From Escherichia coli (GTDB lineage Bacteria; Pseudomonadota; Gammaproteobacteria; Enterobacterales; Enterobacteriaceae): a stretch of 64,000 bases of DNA. The position numbers and the translations under genes were made by a program. This document shows positions 4,191-23,456 of this stretch, one piece after another. Under the pieces are notes generated by a model. That model saw only the letters and a list, made by a program, of their open reading frames with translations. It made no database searches and was not told the origin of the DNA. The DNA is taken from assembly GCF_003334405.1 (NCBI RefSeq), contig NZ_QOWM01000004.1; one strand, given 5' to 3'. The stretch's first letter is position 1. Each line of letters begins with the position of its first letter.

Positions 4191-5090
4191 TTACGCAGAG
4201 AAAAAGGCGATGAGGATCGGCACTAACAGGCTAAGAATAAAACCGTGAACAATTGCCGCCGGGACCATATCCAGCCCGCCAGTACGTTGAAGAACGGGCA
4301 GGGTGAAATCCATTGATGTGGCACCGCATAAGCCCAGTGCAGTAGAGCGGCTGCGGCGAATCAGCCCAGGGATCAACATAATAGCAATCAGTTCACGGGC
4401 CAGATCATTAAAAAACGCCGCGCTCCCGATTACCGGACCAAAAGATTCGGTCAATAAAATACCGGAAAGAGAATACCAGCCGAAACCGGAGGCCATTGCC
4501 AGCGCGGTATTGATGGGGAGATCAAGAATAAAGGCGTTAATTAAACCACCAATTAATGAACTGACAACCACCACCACGGCGACAATCATTCCCCGGCGAT
4601 TAAGGACAATCTGCTTTAAGGTCATGCCATTATTGCGCAACTGAATACCAACGAGGAAAAGTAGCAAAATTAACGTGTATTCACTGGCTTCGGTCGCGTG
4701 TTGTAAGAAAGCCAGTCCACTTAGACCAATGGCAAAACCAATCACTACTACGCCGCACAGTTTTAGCGACTCCAGCGCCATCGCAATACGCGACGGGAGT
4801 TTTTCTTGCTGATGGTGGTTGCGCCACGGCAGGCCTCGCTCCAGCCACATCAGGGCGGCAATATTACACAGTAAAATAACGGTAATACTGACGGCAGAAT
4901 AATGCAGAATCGCCAACAGGTTACTGGCGAGGTTATCGAGAAACGCCAGACTGATACCCATAAAAAAGAGAATAAGGTAAACCATCCAGCTTAATAGCTG
5001 ATTAATAACTTTTAACGCAGCTTGTTGGCGAAGCGGAATGAGGTAACCCACAATCAGGGGAACCAGAATGATTAACAGCCCAGAAAACAT
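4191..5090 (-). CDS. lysO: Lysine exporter, inner-membrane protein
   Basis: ORF 4191..5138; trimmed to the MFSGLLIILVPLIVGYL start (ATG at 5088-5090); highly hydrophobic multi-helix protein; position between hcp and aqpZ. Confidence 0.82.
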   Translation of the reverse strand: MFSGLLIILVPLIVGYLIPLRQQAALKVINQLLSWMVYLILFFMGISLAFLDNLASNLLAILHYSAVSITVILLCNIAALMWLERGLPWRNHHQQEKLPSRIAMALESLKLCGVVVIGFAIGLSGLAFLQHATEASEYTLILLLFLVGIQLRNNGMTLKQIVLNRRGMIVAVVVVVSSLIGGLINAFILDLPINTALAMASGFGWYSLSGILLTESFGPVIGSAAFFNDLARELIAIMLIPGLIRRSRSTALGLCGATSMDFTLPVLQRTGGLDMVPAAIVHGFILSLLVPILIAFFSA

Positions 5091-5302
5091 GAAAACCCAG
5101 TCCTTGCAAAGATGAAGTCGAAATGCGCGATGACACACTACTGAAAGCGGAAGGACGAGTAAAGTTGCAATTAAAAGGAAATGTTATGCATAAGGAGCAG
5201 TAGAGTATTCGTTTTCATTTAAAGATATTCTTGCGCTTTAATTACAAACTGCACCGATGTTGGTGGCGTCAAAATCGCCGAGGCGTTCCCTGAAGGCCGG
5301 GG

Positions 5303-5511
5303 CAGCCCACATGGATGTGGGCTGAGGGCGCGTTTTACAGGGATGTTACCTCGCGCCCGACCCGGTAGCCGTAAGGGATAAGCCGAGGGCACCGCGCAGC
5401 GGCGATTTTGTTCGCCAGAGCCCGGGGGTGCAGGGGGCGGCGGCGATTGGCCGCCCCCTGCGCGCTCCTTGCGCCAGTGGCAATATGTTGCTTAGCTCAT
5501 GAAAGGAGCGC
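5303..5511. repeat. GC-rich cluster of four consecutive palindromes / stem-loops in the lysO-aqpZ intergenic region
   Basis: Perfect inverted repeats read directly: cagcccacat-gg-atgtgggctg (5303-5324); gggcgcg/cgcgccc (5326-5358); gcagggggcggc-ggcgattg-gccgccccctgc (5430-5461, 12-bp stem); gcgctcctt/aaggagcgc (5462-5511). Confidence 0.5.
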
Positions 5512-5545
5512 AACAAGATGATGAATCAACATATAACAACATCTT

Positions 5546-5575
5546 AAAAAAAGGCCTGACATTACGCCAGGCCTT
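5546..5575 (-). terminator. Rho-independent terminator downstream of aqpZ
   Basis: 8-bp stem aaggcctg/caggcctt (5551-5558 / 5568-5575) followed on the minus strand by a U-run (plus-strand A7 at 5546-5552); starts 10 bp after the aqpZ stop. Confidence 0.7.
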
Positions 5576-5584
5576 CTGCGTTAA

Positions 5585-6280
5585 TTAATCACGCTTTTCC
5601 AGCAGGGTCCGGTAAATCAGACCACCGATAATGCCGCCGACAATTGGCACCACCCAGAAGAACCACAGTTGTTCTAATGCCCAGCCGCCCTGGAAGATAG
5701 CAACCGCGGTGCTGCGCGCCGGGTTAACAGAAGTGTTAGTCACCGGAATACTAATTAAGTGAATCAGGGTTAAGGCCAGACCAATAGCGATCGGCGCAAA
5801 ACCTGCCGGCGCGAATTTGTCGGTTGCGCCGTGGATCACCAACAGGAAACCTGCACTCAATACCAGTTCAACTACCAGCGCGGAAAGCATGGAATAACCG
5901 CCTGGTGAATGCTCGCCATAACCGTTAGAAGCAAAACCGCTGGCTGCCGCGTCAAAACCCGTTTTACCACTGGCAATTAAATACAGCAGCGCCGCTGCAA
6001 CAATACCGCCGACAACCTGGGCAATTACGTAGCCAACGACTTCTTTTGCCGGAAAACGTCCGCCAGCCCATAAACCAATAGTGACCGCCGGGTTAAAATG
6101 ACCACCAGAAATATGACCAACAGCAAAGGCCATCGTCAGAACGGTCAGACCGAACGCCAACGCCACGCCGGCAAAACCAATGCCTAATTCCGGGAAGCCT
6201 GCGGCCAGTACAGCACTACCACAGCCACCAAAAACAAGCCAGAAAGTACCAAAACATTCAGCTGCTAATTTTCTGAACAT
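5585..6280 (-). CDS. aqpZ: Aquaporin Z water channel
   Basis: ORF 5585..6286; start [19 protein letters not shown]; two NPA motifs (GGHFNPAVT and NTSVNPAR); GAGGTG Shine-Dalgarno before ATG at 6278-6280. Confidence 0.92.
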
Positions 6281-6705
6281 ATCCACCTCAATTAAAAATT
6301 GACCCTGTGAAAAATATGGTCGTTTTATAGGGTCGTCGTAAAAAAGTGACGACGGAAATAATGCGCGGCTATTTTAAAAACGAAGGCGAGTCATTCACCA
6401 GATAAATAAATCCAGTAAATTTGATTTAGGGCAACAGCGGGTTGCCCCATATAGTCATTTGTCTGATTGACAGTGTAGTGCACGCAAAAGATTTAATCCT
6501 TTAGGCGTAATAAAAAATAATTTATCATGCTAATTATTTGATTTTGTTGTTTTTGCAGACTTATCAGCAAGAGGGAGTATAACGCGATTATTCGCTCATT
6601 TTTCAGACATTTGCCATGCTTAAATGTGATGTCATCACGTATTAGCAAGGCCTTTCCCGTTATACTGCCAGCGTAAAGGATAAGTCACATATTTCTGGAG
6701 GGGAT

Positions 6706-8364
6706 ATGATTCTTGAGCGCGTTGAAATTGTGGGTTTTCGCGGTATCAACCGTTTGTCGTTGATGCTGGAACAAAACAACGTCCTGATTGGGGAGAACGC
6801 GTGGGGTAAATCCAGCTTGCTGGACGCCTTAACTCTGCTGCTATCGCCAGAATCAGATCTCTACCATTTTGAGCGCGACGATTTCTGGTTCCCGCCGGGA
6901 GATATCAACGGGCGAGAACATCATCTGCATATTATTTTGACCTTCCGCGAATCGCTGCCAGGCCGACATCGGGTTCGCCGTTATCGGCCGCTGGAAGCGT
7001 GCTGGACGCCATGCACCGATGGCTATCACCGTATTTTTTATCGTCTGGAAGGGGAGAGTGCGGAAGACGGCAGCGTGATGACACTGCGCAGTTTTCTCGA
7101 TAAAGACGGACATCCGATTGATGTCGAGGATATTAACGATCAGGCACGCCATCTGGTGCGTTTAATGCCGGTGCTGCGCTTGCGTGATGCCCGTTTTATG
7201 CGCCGTATTCGTAACGGCACGGTGCCAAATGTCCCTAATGTGGAAGTCACCGCGCGCCAGCTCGATTTCCTCGCCCGTGAGTTATCCTCACATCCGCAAA
7301 ATCTCTCTGATGGGCAGATTCGTCAGGGACTTTCCGCAATGGTACAGCTGCTTGAGCATTATTTCTCTGAGCAGGGGGCCGGACAGGCGCGATATCGTTT
7401 AATGCGGCGGCGAGCCAGCAATGAGCAACGAAGCTGGCGCTATCTGGATATCATCAACCGGATGATTGACCGACCTGGTGGGCGCTCGTATCGGGTTATT
7501 TTGCTCGGCCTATTTGCTACTTTGTTGCAGGCAAAAGGCACATTGCGACTGGATAAAGACGCCCGTCCATTGTTGCTGATCGAAGATCCAGAAACCCGTT
7601 TACACCCCATTATGCTTTCAGTTGCCTGGCATCTGTTGAATCTTCTGCCATTGCAGCGCATTGCCACCACCAACTCGGGTGAGTTGCTTTCGTTAACGCC
7701 GGTAGAGCATGTTTGCCGACTGGTACGTGAGTCCTCGCGCGTTGCCGCCTGGCGTCTGGGGCCGAGTGGCTTGAGTACCGAAGATAGCCGACGCATATCC
7801 TTTCACATTCGTTTTAACCGTCCGTCATCGCTGTTTGCACGCTGCTGGTTGCTGGTGGAAGGGGAAACGGAAACCTGGGTTATCAATGAACTGGCGCGTC
7901 AGTGCGGACATCATTTTGATGCCGAAGGGATCAAGGTCATTGAGTTTGCCCAGTCCGGGCTAAAGCCACTGGTTAAATTTGCCCGCCGAATGGGGATTGA
8001 ATGGCATGTACTGGTCGATGGCGATGAAGCAGGGAAGAAATATGCCGCTACGGTACGCAGCCTGTTGAATAACGATCGGGAAGCCGAACGAGAACATTTA
8101 ACGGCGTTACCGGCGCTGGATATGGAACATTTTATGTATCGCCAGGGATTTTCCGATGTGTTCCACCGCATGGCGCAAATCCCGGAAAATGTACCGATGA
8201 ATCTACGCAAAATTATCTCGAAAGCGATCCATCGCTCTTCCAAACCCGATCTTGCCATTGAAGTGGCAATGGAGGCAGGACGTCGTGGTGTGGACTCCGT
8301 ACCGACGCTGCTGAAAAAAATGTTCTCACGCGTGCTGTGGCTGGCGCGCGGTCGCGCGGATTAA
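6706..8364 (+). CDS. ybjD: OLD-family ATP-dependent nuclease homologue (N-terminal ABC-type ATPase, C-terminal TOPRIM)
   Basis: 552-aa ORF; P-loop GENAWGKSSLLDA near the N-terminus; TOPRIM-like acidic motifs CWLLVEGETE and HVLVDGDEAG in the C-terminal third. Confidence 0.85.
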   Translation: MILERVEIVGFRGINRLSLMLEQNNVLIGENAWGKSSLLDALTLLLSPESDLYHFERDDFWFPPGDINGREHHLHIILTFRESLPGRHRVRRYRPLEACWTPCTDGYHRIFYRLEGESAEDGSVMTLRSFLDKDGHPIDVEDINDQARHLVRLMPVLRLRDARFMRRIRNGTVPNVPNVEVTARQLDFLARELSSHPQNLSDGQIRQGLSAMVQLLEHYFSEQGAGQARYRLMRRRASNEQRSWRYLDIINRMIDRPGGRSYRVILLGLFATLLQAKGTLRLDKDARPLLLIEDPETRLHPIMLSVAWHLLNLLPLQRIATTNSGELLSLTPVEHVCRLVRESSRVAAWRLGPSGLSTEDSRRISFHIRFNRPSSLFARCWLLVEGETETWVINELARQCGHHFDAEGIKVIEFAQSGLKPLVKFARRMGIEWHVLVDGDEAGKKYAATVRSLLNNDREAEREHLTALPALDMEHFMYRQGFSDVFHRMAQIPENVPMNLRKIISKAIHRSSKPDLAIEVAMEAGRRGVDSVPTLLKKMFSRVLWLARGRAD

Positions 8365-9353
8365 CCGCGAAACATCGTGGCCATTTGTGGCTGAATAGCG
8401 TCGAGCATCTCATAGCGCCGACGGTATTCAGCCCGTTTTTTACTGGCGATTTCGGCAATCTCTTTTCGTGCTATCTGTGCTGGAAGGCGGTAATGGCGTT
8501 CAGCATCACATACGCCGCCAACCGATTCCCAGAAAGCGTTGTAATCAGCGTGGATCTTGCCTTCTTTATCGCGATAACGCAGGCTGCGGTAAATATGCGT
8601 TTCATTGCTGACGGCAATAATCTGCTCTACCTGCAAACGTTGGGCAAACAGACAGGCCGCTTCCATCACGAGGCGTTTGGGAAATAGCCCGTGGCAGGCT
8701 TTCGTCGCATTCTGGATTTCCTGATGTGGAATTTCCCATTTTGCGCCTTGCAGTCCGCCAATAAACATCGTTCTTTTCCCCTGATATTCACACAGGGTAA
8801 ACGTGATCTCTGCCAGAGGAATACCTTCGCTGTTGCGGAACAGGATTGTGCTGTCACCTTCTTTATCCATTGAGATCATCATGGTCAGCTCAAGCGTGAA
8901 CTGCTCGCCGTTTTTGCCTTCCAGCTTCGCCAGTTGCAGCCCGGGGGTATTCAAATATAAGCTGAATTCTTCCGCCGACATACATTCGCGGAGTAACGCA
9001 TAATGGTAACGTAACGCCTCCAGCAATTGCTTACGGCTAAGATTCGCCGCAAGGTAAGGGCGATGCAGACGCACAGGCAGTCGCGGCTGGCGCGTTAACA
9101 ATACATTGAGATTAGGCCAGTGGGAAAGTTCGTTCATCCACTCAACGCTTAAACGCGGCATAATCAACGAGCGCAGCAAAAATTTCTGGCGAAAACTACG
9201 GCGATGCCAGAATTTACCCGGCCGACACTGTCCACGTGCCAGACTAAGAAAAAGTGACAGGCTGCTGAGAGATTCAGATGGCGTAAAGGTCCGTTCAGTT
9301 AGCTGCGACATATTCATGAAATCAATGGTTATACATGGCGTCGATTTCACCAT
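8361..9353 (-). CDS. ybjX: VirK/DUF535-family protein
   Basis: 330-aa ORF convergent with ybjD and overlapping its stop by 4 bp; divergent from macA; identified from position and remembered annotation. Confidence 0.75.
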   Translation of the reverse strand: MVKSTPCITIDFMNMSQLTERTFTPSESLSSLSLFLSLARGQCRPGKFWHRRSFRQKFLLRSLIMPRLSVEWMNELSHWPNLNVLLTRQPRLPVRLHRPYLAANLSRKQLLEALRYHYALLRECMSAEEFSLYLNTPGLQLAKLEGKNGEQFTLELTMMISMDKEGDSTILFRNSEGIPLAEITFTLCEYQGKRTMFIGGLQGAKWEIPHQEIQNATKACHGLFPKRLVMEAACLFAQRLQVEQIIAVSNETHIYRSLRYRDKEGKIHADYNAFWESVGGVCDAERHYRLPAQIARKEIAEIASKKRAEYRRRYEMLDAIQPQMATMFRG

Positions 9354-9467
9354 TGCGTATCTTAACCAAACATCAATAGTGTGATTACTAACGTAAATTT
9401 TAGGGTTTTGTTGATATTTCGTTGAAGTTAATGACCCGGATTGGCATATGGAGTATTCAGAAAATTT

Positions 9468-10583
9468 ATGAAAAAGCGGAAAACCGTGAAGAAGCGTTAC
9501 GTTATTGCGCTGGTGATAGTCATCGCCGGACTGATTACGTTATGGAGAATTCTTAACGCACCCGTGCCGACTTATCAGACGCTGATTGTGCGCCCCGGTG
9601 ATTTACAGCAAAGCGTGCTGGCGACCGGAAAGCTGGACGCGCTGCGTAAGGTTGATGTGGGCGCGCAGGTCAGCGGTCAGTTGAAAACTCTGTCGGTGGC
9701 GATTGGCGATAAAGTAAAAAAAGACCAGCTTTTAGGGGTTATTGATCCTGAACAGGCTGAAAACCAGATTAAGGAGGTCGAAGCAACGCTGATGGAGCTA
9801 CGTGCGCAGCGGCAGCAGGCGGAAGCGGAGCTGAAACTGGCGCGGGTGACGTATTCCCGTCAGCAACGTCTGGCACAAACGAAGGCTGTTTCACAGCAGG
9901 ATCTCGACACCGCCGCGACGGAGATGGCTGTGAAACAGGCGCAAATTGGCACCATTGACGCGCAAATCAAGCGCAATCAGGCTTCTCTCGATACGGCTAA
10001 AACCAATCTCGATTACACTCGCATCGTTGCCCCGATGGCCGGGGAAGTCACGCAAATCACCACTCTGCAAGGCCAGACGGTGATTGCCGCACAACAAGCA
10101 CCGAACATTCTGACGCTGGCAGATATGAGCACCATGCTGGTAAAAGCGCAGGTTTCTGAAGCGGATGTAATCCACCTGAAGCCGGGGCAAAAAGCCTGGT
10201 TTACGGTGCTTGGCGATCCACTGACGCGCTACGAGGGGCAAATCAAGGATGTACTACCGACGCCGGAAAAGGTTAACGACGCTATTTTCTATTACGCCCG
10301 TTTTGAAGTCCCCAACCCCAATGGTTTGCTGCGGCTGGATATGACTGCGCAAGTGCATATTCAGCTCACCGATGTGAAAAATGTGCTGACGATCCCTCTG
10401 TCGGCGTTAGGCGATCCGGTTGGCGATAATCGTTATAAAGTCAAATTGTTGCGTAATGGTGAAACACGCGAGCGTGAAGTGACGATTGGCGCACGTAACG
10501 ATACCGATGTTGAGATTGTCAAAGGGCTTGAAGCGGGCGATGAAGTGGTGATTGGTGAGGCCAAACCAGGAGCTGCACAATGA
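9468..10583 (+). CDS. macA: Macrolide efflux periplasmic adaptor (membrane fusion protein)
   Basis: ORF 9441..10583 starts at an upstream TTG; trimmed to ATG at 9468 ([18 protein letters not shown]); coiled-coil region; stop overlaps the macB start (ATGA at 10580-10583). Confidence 0.9.
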
Positions 10584-23322: not shown

Positions 23323-23456
23323 CACGGAACAGGTGCAAAATCGGCGTATTTTGATTACACTCCTGTTAATCCATACAGCAACAGTACTGGGGTAACCTGG
23401 TACTGTTGTCCGTTTTAGCATCGGGCAGGAAAAGCCTGTAACCTGGAGAGCCTTTC

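Follow-up and report, generated by a model that had tools for sequence, protein, structure and literature searches.

We analysed a 64,000-nucleotide stretch of the Escherichia coli chromosome (contig NZ_QOWM01000004.1, called the window in the following) that carries the gene ybjD, for which the name oldB has been proposed. Very probably ybjD encodes an OLD protein, of Class 1 by gene context, in which an SMC/Rad50-like ABC ATPase head with a helical insertion is fused to a predicted two-metal Toprim nuclease, and is a core, vertically inherited gene of the Enterobacterales. Identity and class of the gene are already known in the literature: Schiltz et al. used YbjD (b0876) in 2019 as the query defining the OLD classes and listed E. 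coli in Class 1 (PMC6755086), and a micropublication by Atahualpa et al. in 2026 studied ybjD directly and proposed the new name (PMC13261556). New here are its core-gene status, the conserved synteny, the housekeeping-like divergence, the absence from phage records and the constraint on the Toprim half.

Family membership and class of YbjD

The gene is an uninterrupted open reading frame (ORF) of 552 codons at positions 6706-8364 on the plus strand. A 2.2-kb stretch with ybjD matched RefSeq genomes at 100% identity, the genes there being named ybjD and ybjX. The original prediction, made from the letters alone, had described an N-terminal ABC-type ATPase fused to a C-terminal Toprim-like domain and quoted three peptide motifs, all of which are present: GENAWGKSSLLDA at residues 29-41, which includes Walker A from G29 to S36 with K35, LLVEGETE at residues 382-389 and LVDGDEAG at residues 436-443. 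The fusion was borne out by Pfam, where DUF2813 covered residues 1-375 (E 3.5e-160) and OLD-like_TOPRIM (PF20469) residues 376-440 (E 7.8e-16), accompanied by weaker P-loop, SMC_N and ABC matches at the N-terminus. The top PADLOC model was GajA (PDLC00094, 267 bits), aligned to the end of the profile and the extreme C-terminus of YbjD. The Old model scored 84 bits with an alignment ending at residue 473, and the AriA model covered the first 51 residues only. None of the NCBIfam models exceeded its cutoff, so YbjD has no curated equivalog.

Among 1.84 billion cluster representatives, which were searched exhaustively, 335 relatives reached E <= 1e-30. The alignment A1 comprises 62 full-length relatives with 28-54% identity to YbjD, to which all counts out of 62 below refer. 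Its profile matched Ts OLD (6P74, Class 1) at E 4.1e-21 and GajA nearly equally well at E 1.7e-19. Pfam, PADLOC and the A1 profile thus place YbjD inside the OLD family, as the profile search suggested by the original prediction was meant to check.

With residue roles taken from the work on Ts OLD (PMC7049728), E293 of YbjD aligns with E276 of Walker B and is kept in 57 of the 62 relatives, and H300 aligns with H283 of the D-loop (61 of 62). E385, D438 and D440 align with the metal A residues E377, D431 and D433, and E389 aligns with D381 of metal B. The N-terminal ABC-type ATPase with its Walker A Lys, the Walker B acidic residue with the D-loop His (hhhhE-x-PE-x-x-LH, here LLLIEDPETRLH at residues 289-300) and the Toprim metal A triad E...DxD together with metal B acidic residues are all present. 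The H-loop His is not: N323 stands at this position, aligned with H310 of Ts OLD and with the 'STHS' motif of GajA, and the family shows N in 37, H in 10, Q in 9 and Y in 5 members (n=62). Since a His-to-Asn swap at the H-loop is frequent among Class 1 homologues (PMC7049728), we regard it as variation within the family and not as a ground for exclusion; the residue itself predicts slow or altered hydrolysis. Further downstream, D472-x-E474 has the spacing of a metal B pair. The only invariant basic residue after this pair is K513, located in the C-terminal helical bundle, and K513-P514 is the only candidate for a Lys/Arg of the nuclease site; as a whole domain the region fits the C-terminal region (CTR) of Bp OLD, which carries K562.

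An AlphaFold2 (AF2) model computed on A1 was confident, with a mean predicted local distance difference test score of 88.5 and a predicted template modelling score of 0.87. Its C-terminal region contains helices at residues 473-490, 500-510, 513-527 and 534-551, and within the helical insertion the loops 172-176 and 223-242 are of low confidence. Foldseek searches with the model retrieved GajA (E 2.6e-19), Ts OLD (5.3e-17) and the retron-Eco8 OLD (1.8e-14), and the Class 2 Bp OLD CTR structure 6NK8 superposed on the C-terminal region over 164 residues at 2.3 Å. Sequence, profile and fold agree, and membership of YbjD in the OLD family is therefore established; its identity and architecture are near certain.

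It is mainly gene context that defines the OLD classes. Regarding Class 2 (Gabija), the annotation of 20 kb around ybjD (about 9 kb to either side) shows no helicase, and none was found in the flanks of 80 orthologue loci (up to 6 kb to either side, as far as the contig reaches; lysO/aqpZ and ybjX/macAB occupy them) or beside eight distant DUF2813 members (nine look-ups); ybjD hence does not qualify as Gabija. Regarding Class 3 (retron), no reverse transcriptase is annotated near ybjD and an Rfam scan of positions 5000-10000 gave no retron RNA. In Class 4 (PARIS) two different polypeptides, AriA and AriB, bear the ATPase and the Toprim, whereas a single 552-aa ORF here carries both. The neighbours aqpZ, lysO, ybjX and macAB were without a match to any PADLOC model. 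As context and fusion exclude Classes 2, 3 and 4, YbjD is a Class 1 OLD by context, the conclusion also drawn in PMC6755086 and PMC13261556; the solo position without a UvrD-like partner and the Class 1 architecture that had been proposed from the sequence thus hold, both as published results. Its nuclease half looks rather Class-2-like, because the GajA profile reaches the C-terminus, 6NK8 superposes and K513 lies in the helical bundle. This fits with the nesting of Class 2 inside Class 1's diversity (PMC12796447).

Among characterised systems, Ts OLD of Thermus scotoductus is the best match of the A1 profile. Both are solo genes for an ABC ATPase with helical insertion plus a Toprim domain at the C-terminus, and Walker B Glu, D-loop His, metal A and the first metal B residue align. 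They differ in the H-loop (His in Ts OLD, Asn in YbjD) and in the C-terminal helical region, which is longer in YbjD and contains the invariant K513. Arg487 of Ts OLD follows seven residues after the metal B Glu, while the matching position of YbjD is the invariant Gly481. Nuclease and ATPase activities have been demonstrated for Ts OLD and are predicted for YbjD. P2 Old, the founding Class 1 member, shares the two-domain architecture and the solo context, and its catalytic set K37, D299, H306, E398, E402, D453 and D455 has counterparts in YbjD. The two proteins are however only about 18% identical (PMC6755086), and the PADLOC Old model leaves the last part of YbjD unaligned. P2 Old is encoded by a phage, is lethal to recBC cells and acts on tRNA by cleavage, whereas YbjD is chromosomal, core and not lethal in recBC-ts cells (PMC13261556). 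GajA resembles YbjD as the top PADLOC model and through the fit of 6NK8, and the toxicity of the YbjD variant K35A recalls the inhibition of GajA by ATP; unlike gajA, neither ybjD nor the relatives examined have a GajB/UvrD-like helicase beside them. Vc OLD of Vibrio cholerae, a Class 1 DNA nickase, is likewise a solo, RecBCD-independent OLD (PMC12392090), but it is an accessory defence gene with ATPase residues needed for defence and a phage-encoded inhibitor, while YbjD is a core gene whose K35 is dispensable for the overexpression phenotype. Cran1, a Class 5 OLD of the Sulfolobales, is conserved throughout its lineage with no evident defence role and sets a precedent for a cellular function in the family (PMC12796447). 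It differs from the non-essential YbjD in being archaeal, essential, cell-cycle regulated and part of an operon that also encodes a membrane protein.

All eight of the distant DUF2813 members (30-53% identity) are solo, and several sit among housekeeping genes (pgpA/dxs, ushA/cof, cysS/nrdAB), one of them beside polB. For the OLD homologue P0184 with DUF2813 (L089, 162-4882), a PhdYeFM/PIN (VapBC-like) toxin-antitoxin pair lies upstream and the gene of a family-B DNA polymerase downstream, all of these genes sharing one strand. We also observed giant DUF2813/OLD proteins of 1046-1867 aa (P0150, P0162, P0163, P0165, P0175 and P0196; L091/L092, 392-4360). Their P-loop lies at the extreme N-terminus and a YbjD-like Walker B-Toprim block (40-45% identical) begins 500-700 residues later, which implies that the ATPase head holds a very large insertion and that a long extension follows at the C-terminus. 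Of these giants, one is located near polA and an unannotated 1020-aa protein.

Vertical inheritance and constraint on the nuclease half

At an identity of at least 95%, 5425 of the 5426 complete E. coli genomes carry the ybjD locus, each of them once. A scan with one genome per species yielded 80 loci, in which identity to YbjD declines with phylogenetic distance: 97-99% in Escherichia, about 91% in Citrobacter, about 85% in Enterobacter and Klebsiella, about 80% in Buttiauxella and Cedecea, 75% in Mangrovibacter, 66-68% in Pectobacterium, Brenneria and Serratia and 64% in Hafnia. Chromosomes and chromids filed as plasmids extend this gradient to Yersinia (64%), Proteus (56%), Aeromonas (45.5%) and Vibrio (about 43%). 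The gene order lysO-(aqpZ)-ybjD-(ybjX)-macAB is kept throughout the Enterobacteriaceae and in Serratia, and lysO adjoins ybjD even in Pectobacterium and Hafnia. Across loci the identity of YbjD tracks that of LysO, MacA and MacB (r 0.92, 0.90 and 0.94), and on average departs from it by no more than 1 percentage point. In comparison to E. albertii (synonymous divergence dS 0.81, unsaturated) the ratio of nonsynonymous to synonymous divergence (dN/dS) was 0.015 for ybjD, 0.022 for aqpZ and 0.024 for macB.

A signature of horizontal transfer was looked for in base composition and rejected, since GC content (53.1%) and GC content at third codon positions (55.2%) of ybjD resemble those of its neighbours. 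No phage-borne copy was detected by tblastn among 50,697 phage records. Conservation, synteny, neighbour-like divergence, distance-tracking identity, low dN/dS, host-like GC content and the lack of a phage copy show that ybjD is an ordinary vertically inherited core chromosomal gene of the Enterobacterales and not a mobile gene of defence islands; as an anti-phage gene it would be expected to be accessory, mobile or of island type, while its distribution is core, syntenic and vertical. By DefenseFinder, Class 1 OLDs occur in only 0.45% of genomes (PMC12392090). Given the near-universal presence of ybjD in E. coli, the YbjD clade has evidently been left out of this count.

Other origins were considered and set aside. 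The PHROG family phrog_4747, of unknown function, matches YbjD residues 233-538 at 390 bits. The search of phage records gave only a 2-kb fragment with host-like sequence, and phrog_4747 probably goes back to host genes located in regions predicted as prophages. Matches in plasmid records proved to be pieces of chromosomes, complete chromosomes entered as plasmids or Vibrio chromids. Public data further contain several clusters of truncated YbjD fragments of 155-301 aa at about 99% identity (P0124, P0132, P0136 and P0239), which could be frameshifted alleles of Escherichia/Shigella or assembly breaks.

Constraint is unevenly distributed along the protein. E385, E387, E389, D440, E474, K513 and P514 are invariant in all 62 family members, and D438 and D472 each deviate in a single member, whereas Walker A K35 is replaced by Arg in five members and by Ser in one. 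The mean majority-residue fraction amounts to 0.64 in the Toprim core as opposed to 0.41 in the ATPase region overall. Among 79 orthologues, 77 have a C-terminal half that is better conserved than the N-terminal half (medians 88% vs 82%), and every one of 16 comparisons gave the C-terminal half a lower dN, as a rule roughly one half to two-thirds of that of the ATPase. Given the invariance of the Toprim catalytic residues and the stronger conservation of the Toprim half, the natural function of YbjD very probably requires the nuclease.

Local sequence and neighbouring genes

The features of the locus are compiled in Table 1. In an alignment of the upstream region from ten genera (A2), the conserved elements are only the TATACT hexamer, the Shine-Dalgarno sequence and the start codon; the hexamer was not called by a consensus promoter scan. 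The spacer between aqpZ and ybjD is 419 bp long and AT-rich (37% GC). Strain engineering makes use of it as a neutral site for integration (PMC9203016), and in E. coli CFSAN061761 (L094, 586-1283) an IS1A element is inserted in it, leaving ybjD intact.

Table 1. Sequence features of ybjD and its surroundings (positions in the window)
Feature	Position	Strand	Basis or remark
Candidate -10 promoter hexamer TATACT (putative)	6661..6666	+	CGTTATACT block conserved across ten genera (A2)
Shine-Dalgarno sequence GGAGG	6697..6701	+	Sequence; near-invariant in A2
ybjD (proposed name oldB) coding sequence, 552 aa plus stop	6706..8364	+	Single ATG-started ORF; RefSeq 'ybjD: ATP-dependent endonuclease'; Pfam DUF2813 and OLD-like_TOPRIM
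Walker A / P-loop GENAWGKS, residues 29-36, K35	6790..6813	+	G29 invariant; K35 in 56/62 family members
Helical insertion in ATPase domain, residues ~166-285	7201..7560	+	AF2 helices 177-277; majority-residue fraction 0.29, the lowest
Walker B and D-loop LLLIEDPETRLH, residues 289-300	7570..7605	+	Profile alignment to 6P74
H-loop position TTNS, residues 321-324, Asn323	7666..7677	+	Alignments to Ts OLD His310
Toprim core, residues 378-470	7837..8115	+	PF20469; metal A set E385/D438/D440, metal B set includes E389 (by alignment to Ts OLD)
C-terminal helical region, residues 471-552	8116..8361	+	D472-x-E474 likely metal B ligands; K513-P514 likely catalytic Lys
4-bp overlap TTAA of the convergent ybjD/ybjX stop codons	8361..8364		ORF coordinates; terminator between the genes impossible
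ybjX (VirK/YbjX family), convergent neighbour, not a partner of ybjD	8361..9317	-	Annotation

The overlap of 4 bp with the convergent ybjX, already noticed in the original prediction, is confirmed by the ORF coordinates; the ORF call of ybjX is 8361..9353/9317 on the minus strand. As the stop codons overlap, a terminator between the two genes is ruled out, and terminator-like matches inside the ORF are consensus noise. On the basis of RNA-seq, ybjD and ybjX have been catalogued as a convergent excludon (PMC12288877). ybjX is absent from 25 of the 80 related loci, a few of which end too soon to tell, although complete loci with macAB directly after ybjD are among them (Klebsiella, Raoultella and Superficieibacter). 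Where YbjX is full-length its median identity is about 53%, as compared to about 85% for YbjD, MacA and MacB (loci L002-L081). YbjX, of the VirK family, evolves much faster than all its neighbours; within Citrobacter it is about 57% identical while the neighbours are about 90% identical.

Regulation by the SOS response was rejected for ybjD: no LexA box (CTGT-N8-ACAG with at most one mismatch) was found in 6287-6705, and the total for the window was at chance level. The only perfect LexA-box-like match of the window, CTGTTAATCCATACAG at 23363-23378 on the plus strand, is located between lrp and ftsK. We take it to be, most likely, the known SOS (dinH) promoter of ftsK. A structured RNA or riboswitch around ybjD was likewise rejected, as the Rfam search of positions 5000-10000 at permissive thresholds gave only one sub-threshold match. 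This TwoAYGGAY match at 5269-5408 on the plus strand, in the spacer between lysO and aqpZ, scored 30.2 bits (gathering score 43, E 0.087) and is probably due to chance.

Mode of action and biological role

The phenotypes of ybjD have been described in a single genetic study (PMC13261556). The gene is transcribed, and its deletion in the Keio strain left the plaquing of 68 BASEL phages unchanged. Overexpression from pBAD had weak effects, reducing the plaquing of Bas18 and Bas20 and the plaque size of Bas64-68. These anti-phage effects were kept after deletion of the Toprim domain (residues 1-377 retained) and abolished by deletion of the ATPase. The variant K35A kept them as well and was more toxic than the wild type. 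YbjD was not lethal in recBC-ts cells, unlike P2 Old (all PMC13261556). Since the most conserved half of the protein is dispensable for the published phenotype, overexpression may not report the natural function.

By analogy to its structurally characterised relatives we consider the following mechanism plausible. YbjD may dimerise, like Ts OLD and GajA, via the helical insertion, which is the dimerisation domain of Ts OLD (PMC7049728), and its ABC heads would bind ATP across the dimer. The heads would act mainly as a nucleotide-gated switch and not as a fast motor; this is favoured by the Asn at the H-loop position, where the His of Ts OLD is essential for hydrolysis (PMC7049728), together with the conserved Walker A/B and D-loop motifs and the toxicity of K35A. 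ATP-bound YbjD would be restrained and the nucleotide-free protein more active and toxic, as in GajA. The Toprim site (E385/D438/D440, E389/D472/E474 and K513) might then nick or cleave DNA or, as for P2 Old, tRNA.

Several points weigh against reading YbjD as a conserved two-metal nuclease governed by an ATPase head. The published evidence is genetic, and the phenotypes come from plasmid overexpression only and are independent of Toprim and K35 (PMC13261556); they thus lend no support to a nuclease-based mechanism. The Walker A Lys is not strictly kept (5 Arg and 1 Ser of 62), and ATP handling may therefore vary in the family. The likely roles of D472, E474 and K513 are based on spacing, invariance and a whole-domain structural fit and not on residue-level superposition. 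Finally, dS is saturated in most comparisons (>1 beyond Escherichia), so that those ratios were left unused and the E. albertii values are the reliable dN/dS estimates.

What the protein does for the cell can be read in different ways. It is possible, and we say so tentatively, that YbjD is primarily a housekeeping or stress nuclease in genome maintenance, replication-associated nicking or RNA processing, a bacterial counterpart of archaeal Cran1, and that the anti-phage effect of YbjD on overexpression is a side effect. Its presence as a core gene in 5425 of 5426 genomes, the conserved synteny, the housekeeping-like evolutionary rate and the lack of phage or true plasmid copies all point in this direction, as do the distant members found among housekeeping genes, sometimes beside polB, polA, nrdAB or xseB, the precedent of Cran1 (PMC12796447), the deletion without a phenotype on 68 phages and an overexpression effect that is independent of the best-conserved domain (PMC13261556). 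On the other hand, ybjD is non-essential, no phenotype in growth, repair or RNA is reported for it, its upstream region has no LexA box, the replication and repair genes beside some members are isolated, non-conserved cases, and a defence function of a core gene is conceivable. Somewhat less likely, we judge, YbjD is truly an abortive-infection effector against phages, of the type of P2 Old or Vc OLD, which at native levels would act on phages other than those assayed and would kill through the Toprim nuclease. The characterised bacterial members of the family do all act in defence (PMC10568477, PMC12392090), nuclease and ATPase sites of YbjD are intact, and overexpression impairs Bas18, Bas20 and Bas64-68 (PMC13261556). 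Yet deletion had no consequence for plaquing (PMC13261556), Toprim and K35 were dispensable for the effect seen, the lethality of P2 Old in recBC-ts cells was not reproduced, and the usual marks of defence genes, namely patchy distribution, mobile context and fast evolution, are absent. A ubiquitous gene can also not be among the Class 1 OLDs of DefenseFinder type, with their 0.45% of genomes (PMC12392090).

Two further readings involve a missing or a present partner gene. That ybjD is an orphaned gajA, a Gabija remnant without GajB that is decaying or functionless, is very improbable. In its favour, the GajA model is the top PADLOC match and reaches the profile's end while the alignment of the Old model breaks off at residue 473, the CTR of the Class 2 protein Bp OLD fits YbjD's C-terminal region over 164 residues, and a uvrD-'ybjD' pair occurs on SGI1 (PMC9035990). 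Decay is however excluded by the strong purifying selection and the invariance of the catalytic residues, and refuted by the dN/dS values, and the Class 1 protein Ts OLD scores as well as GajA by profile. A hidden GajB was rejected as well, no helicase being found at any locus examined, whether the 80 syntenic orthologue loci or those of the eight distant DUF2813 members. Still more remote is a two-gene system of ybjD and the overlapping convergent ybjX. The 4-bp overlap and the overlapping transcription in RNA-seq could couple their expression negatively, but the convergent orientation, the lack of a defence-model match for ybjX in PADLOC and the low identity of YbjX where present speak against a partnership, and its absence from 25 of 80 loci, complete ones included, rules it out by phyletic uncoupling.

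Returning to YbjD as a core OLD nuclease, we offer as a tentative account that the DUF2813 clade to which it belongs is an ancient, vertically inherited gammaproteobacterial nuclease that requires its Toprim domain and does not serve phage defence. It would act by nucleotide-gated nicking or RNA cleavage in genome maintenance or stress, as a counterpart of Cran1, and the overexpression effect would be an artefact of the ATPase domain.

OLD proteins are read as defence proteins almost by default, and anti-phage genes are typically mobile. Against this background ybjD is unusual as a universally conserved, vertically inherited chromosomal OLD gene, whose nuclease half is best conserved in nature and yet dispensable for the only published phenotype. 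YbjD is the OLD copy of nearly every E. coli, K-12 included, and no other case lends itself so well to asking what a solo OLD does. What keeps the gene of interest is the physiological role that a core OLD nuclease under such strong constraint would have.

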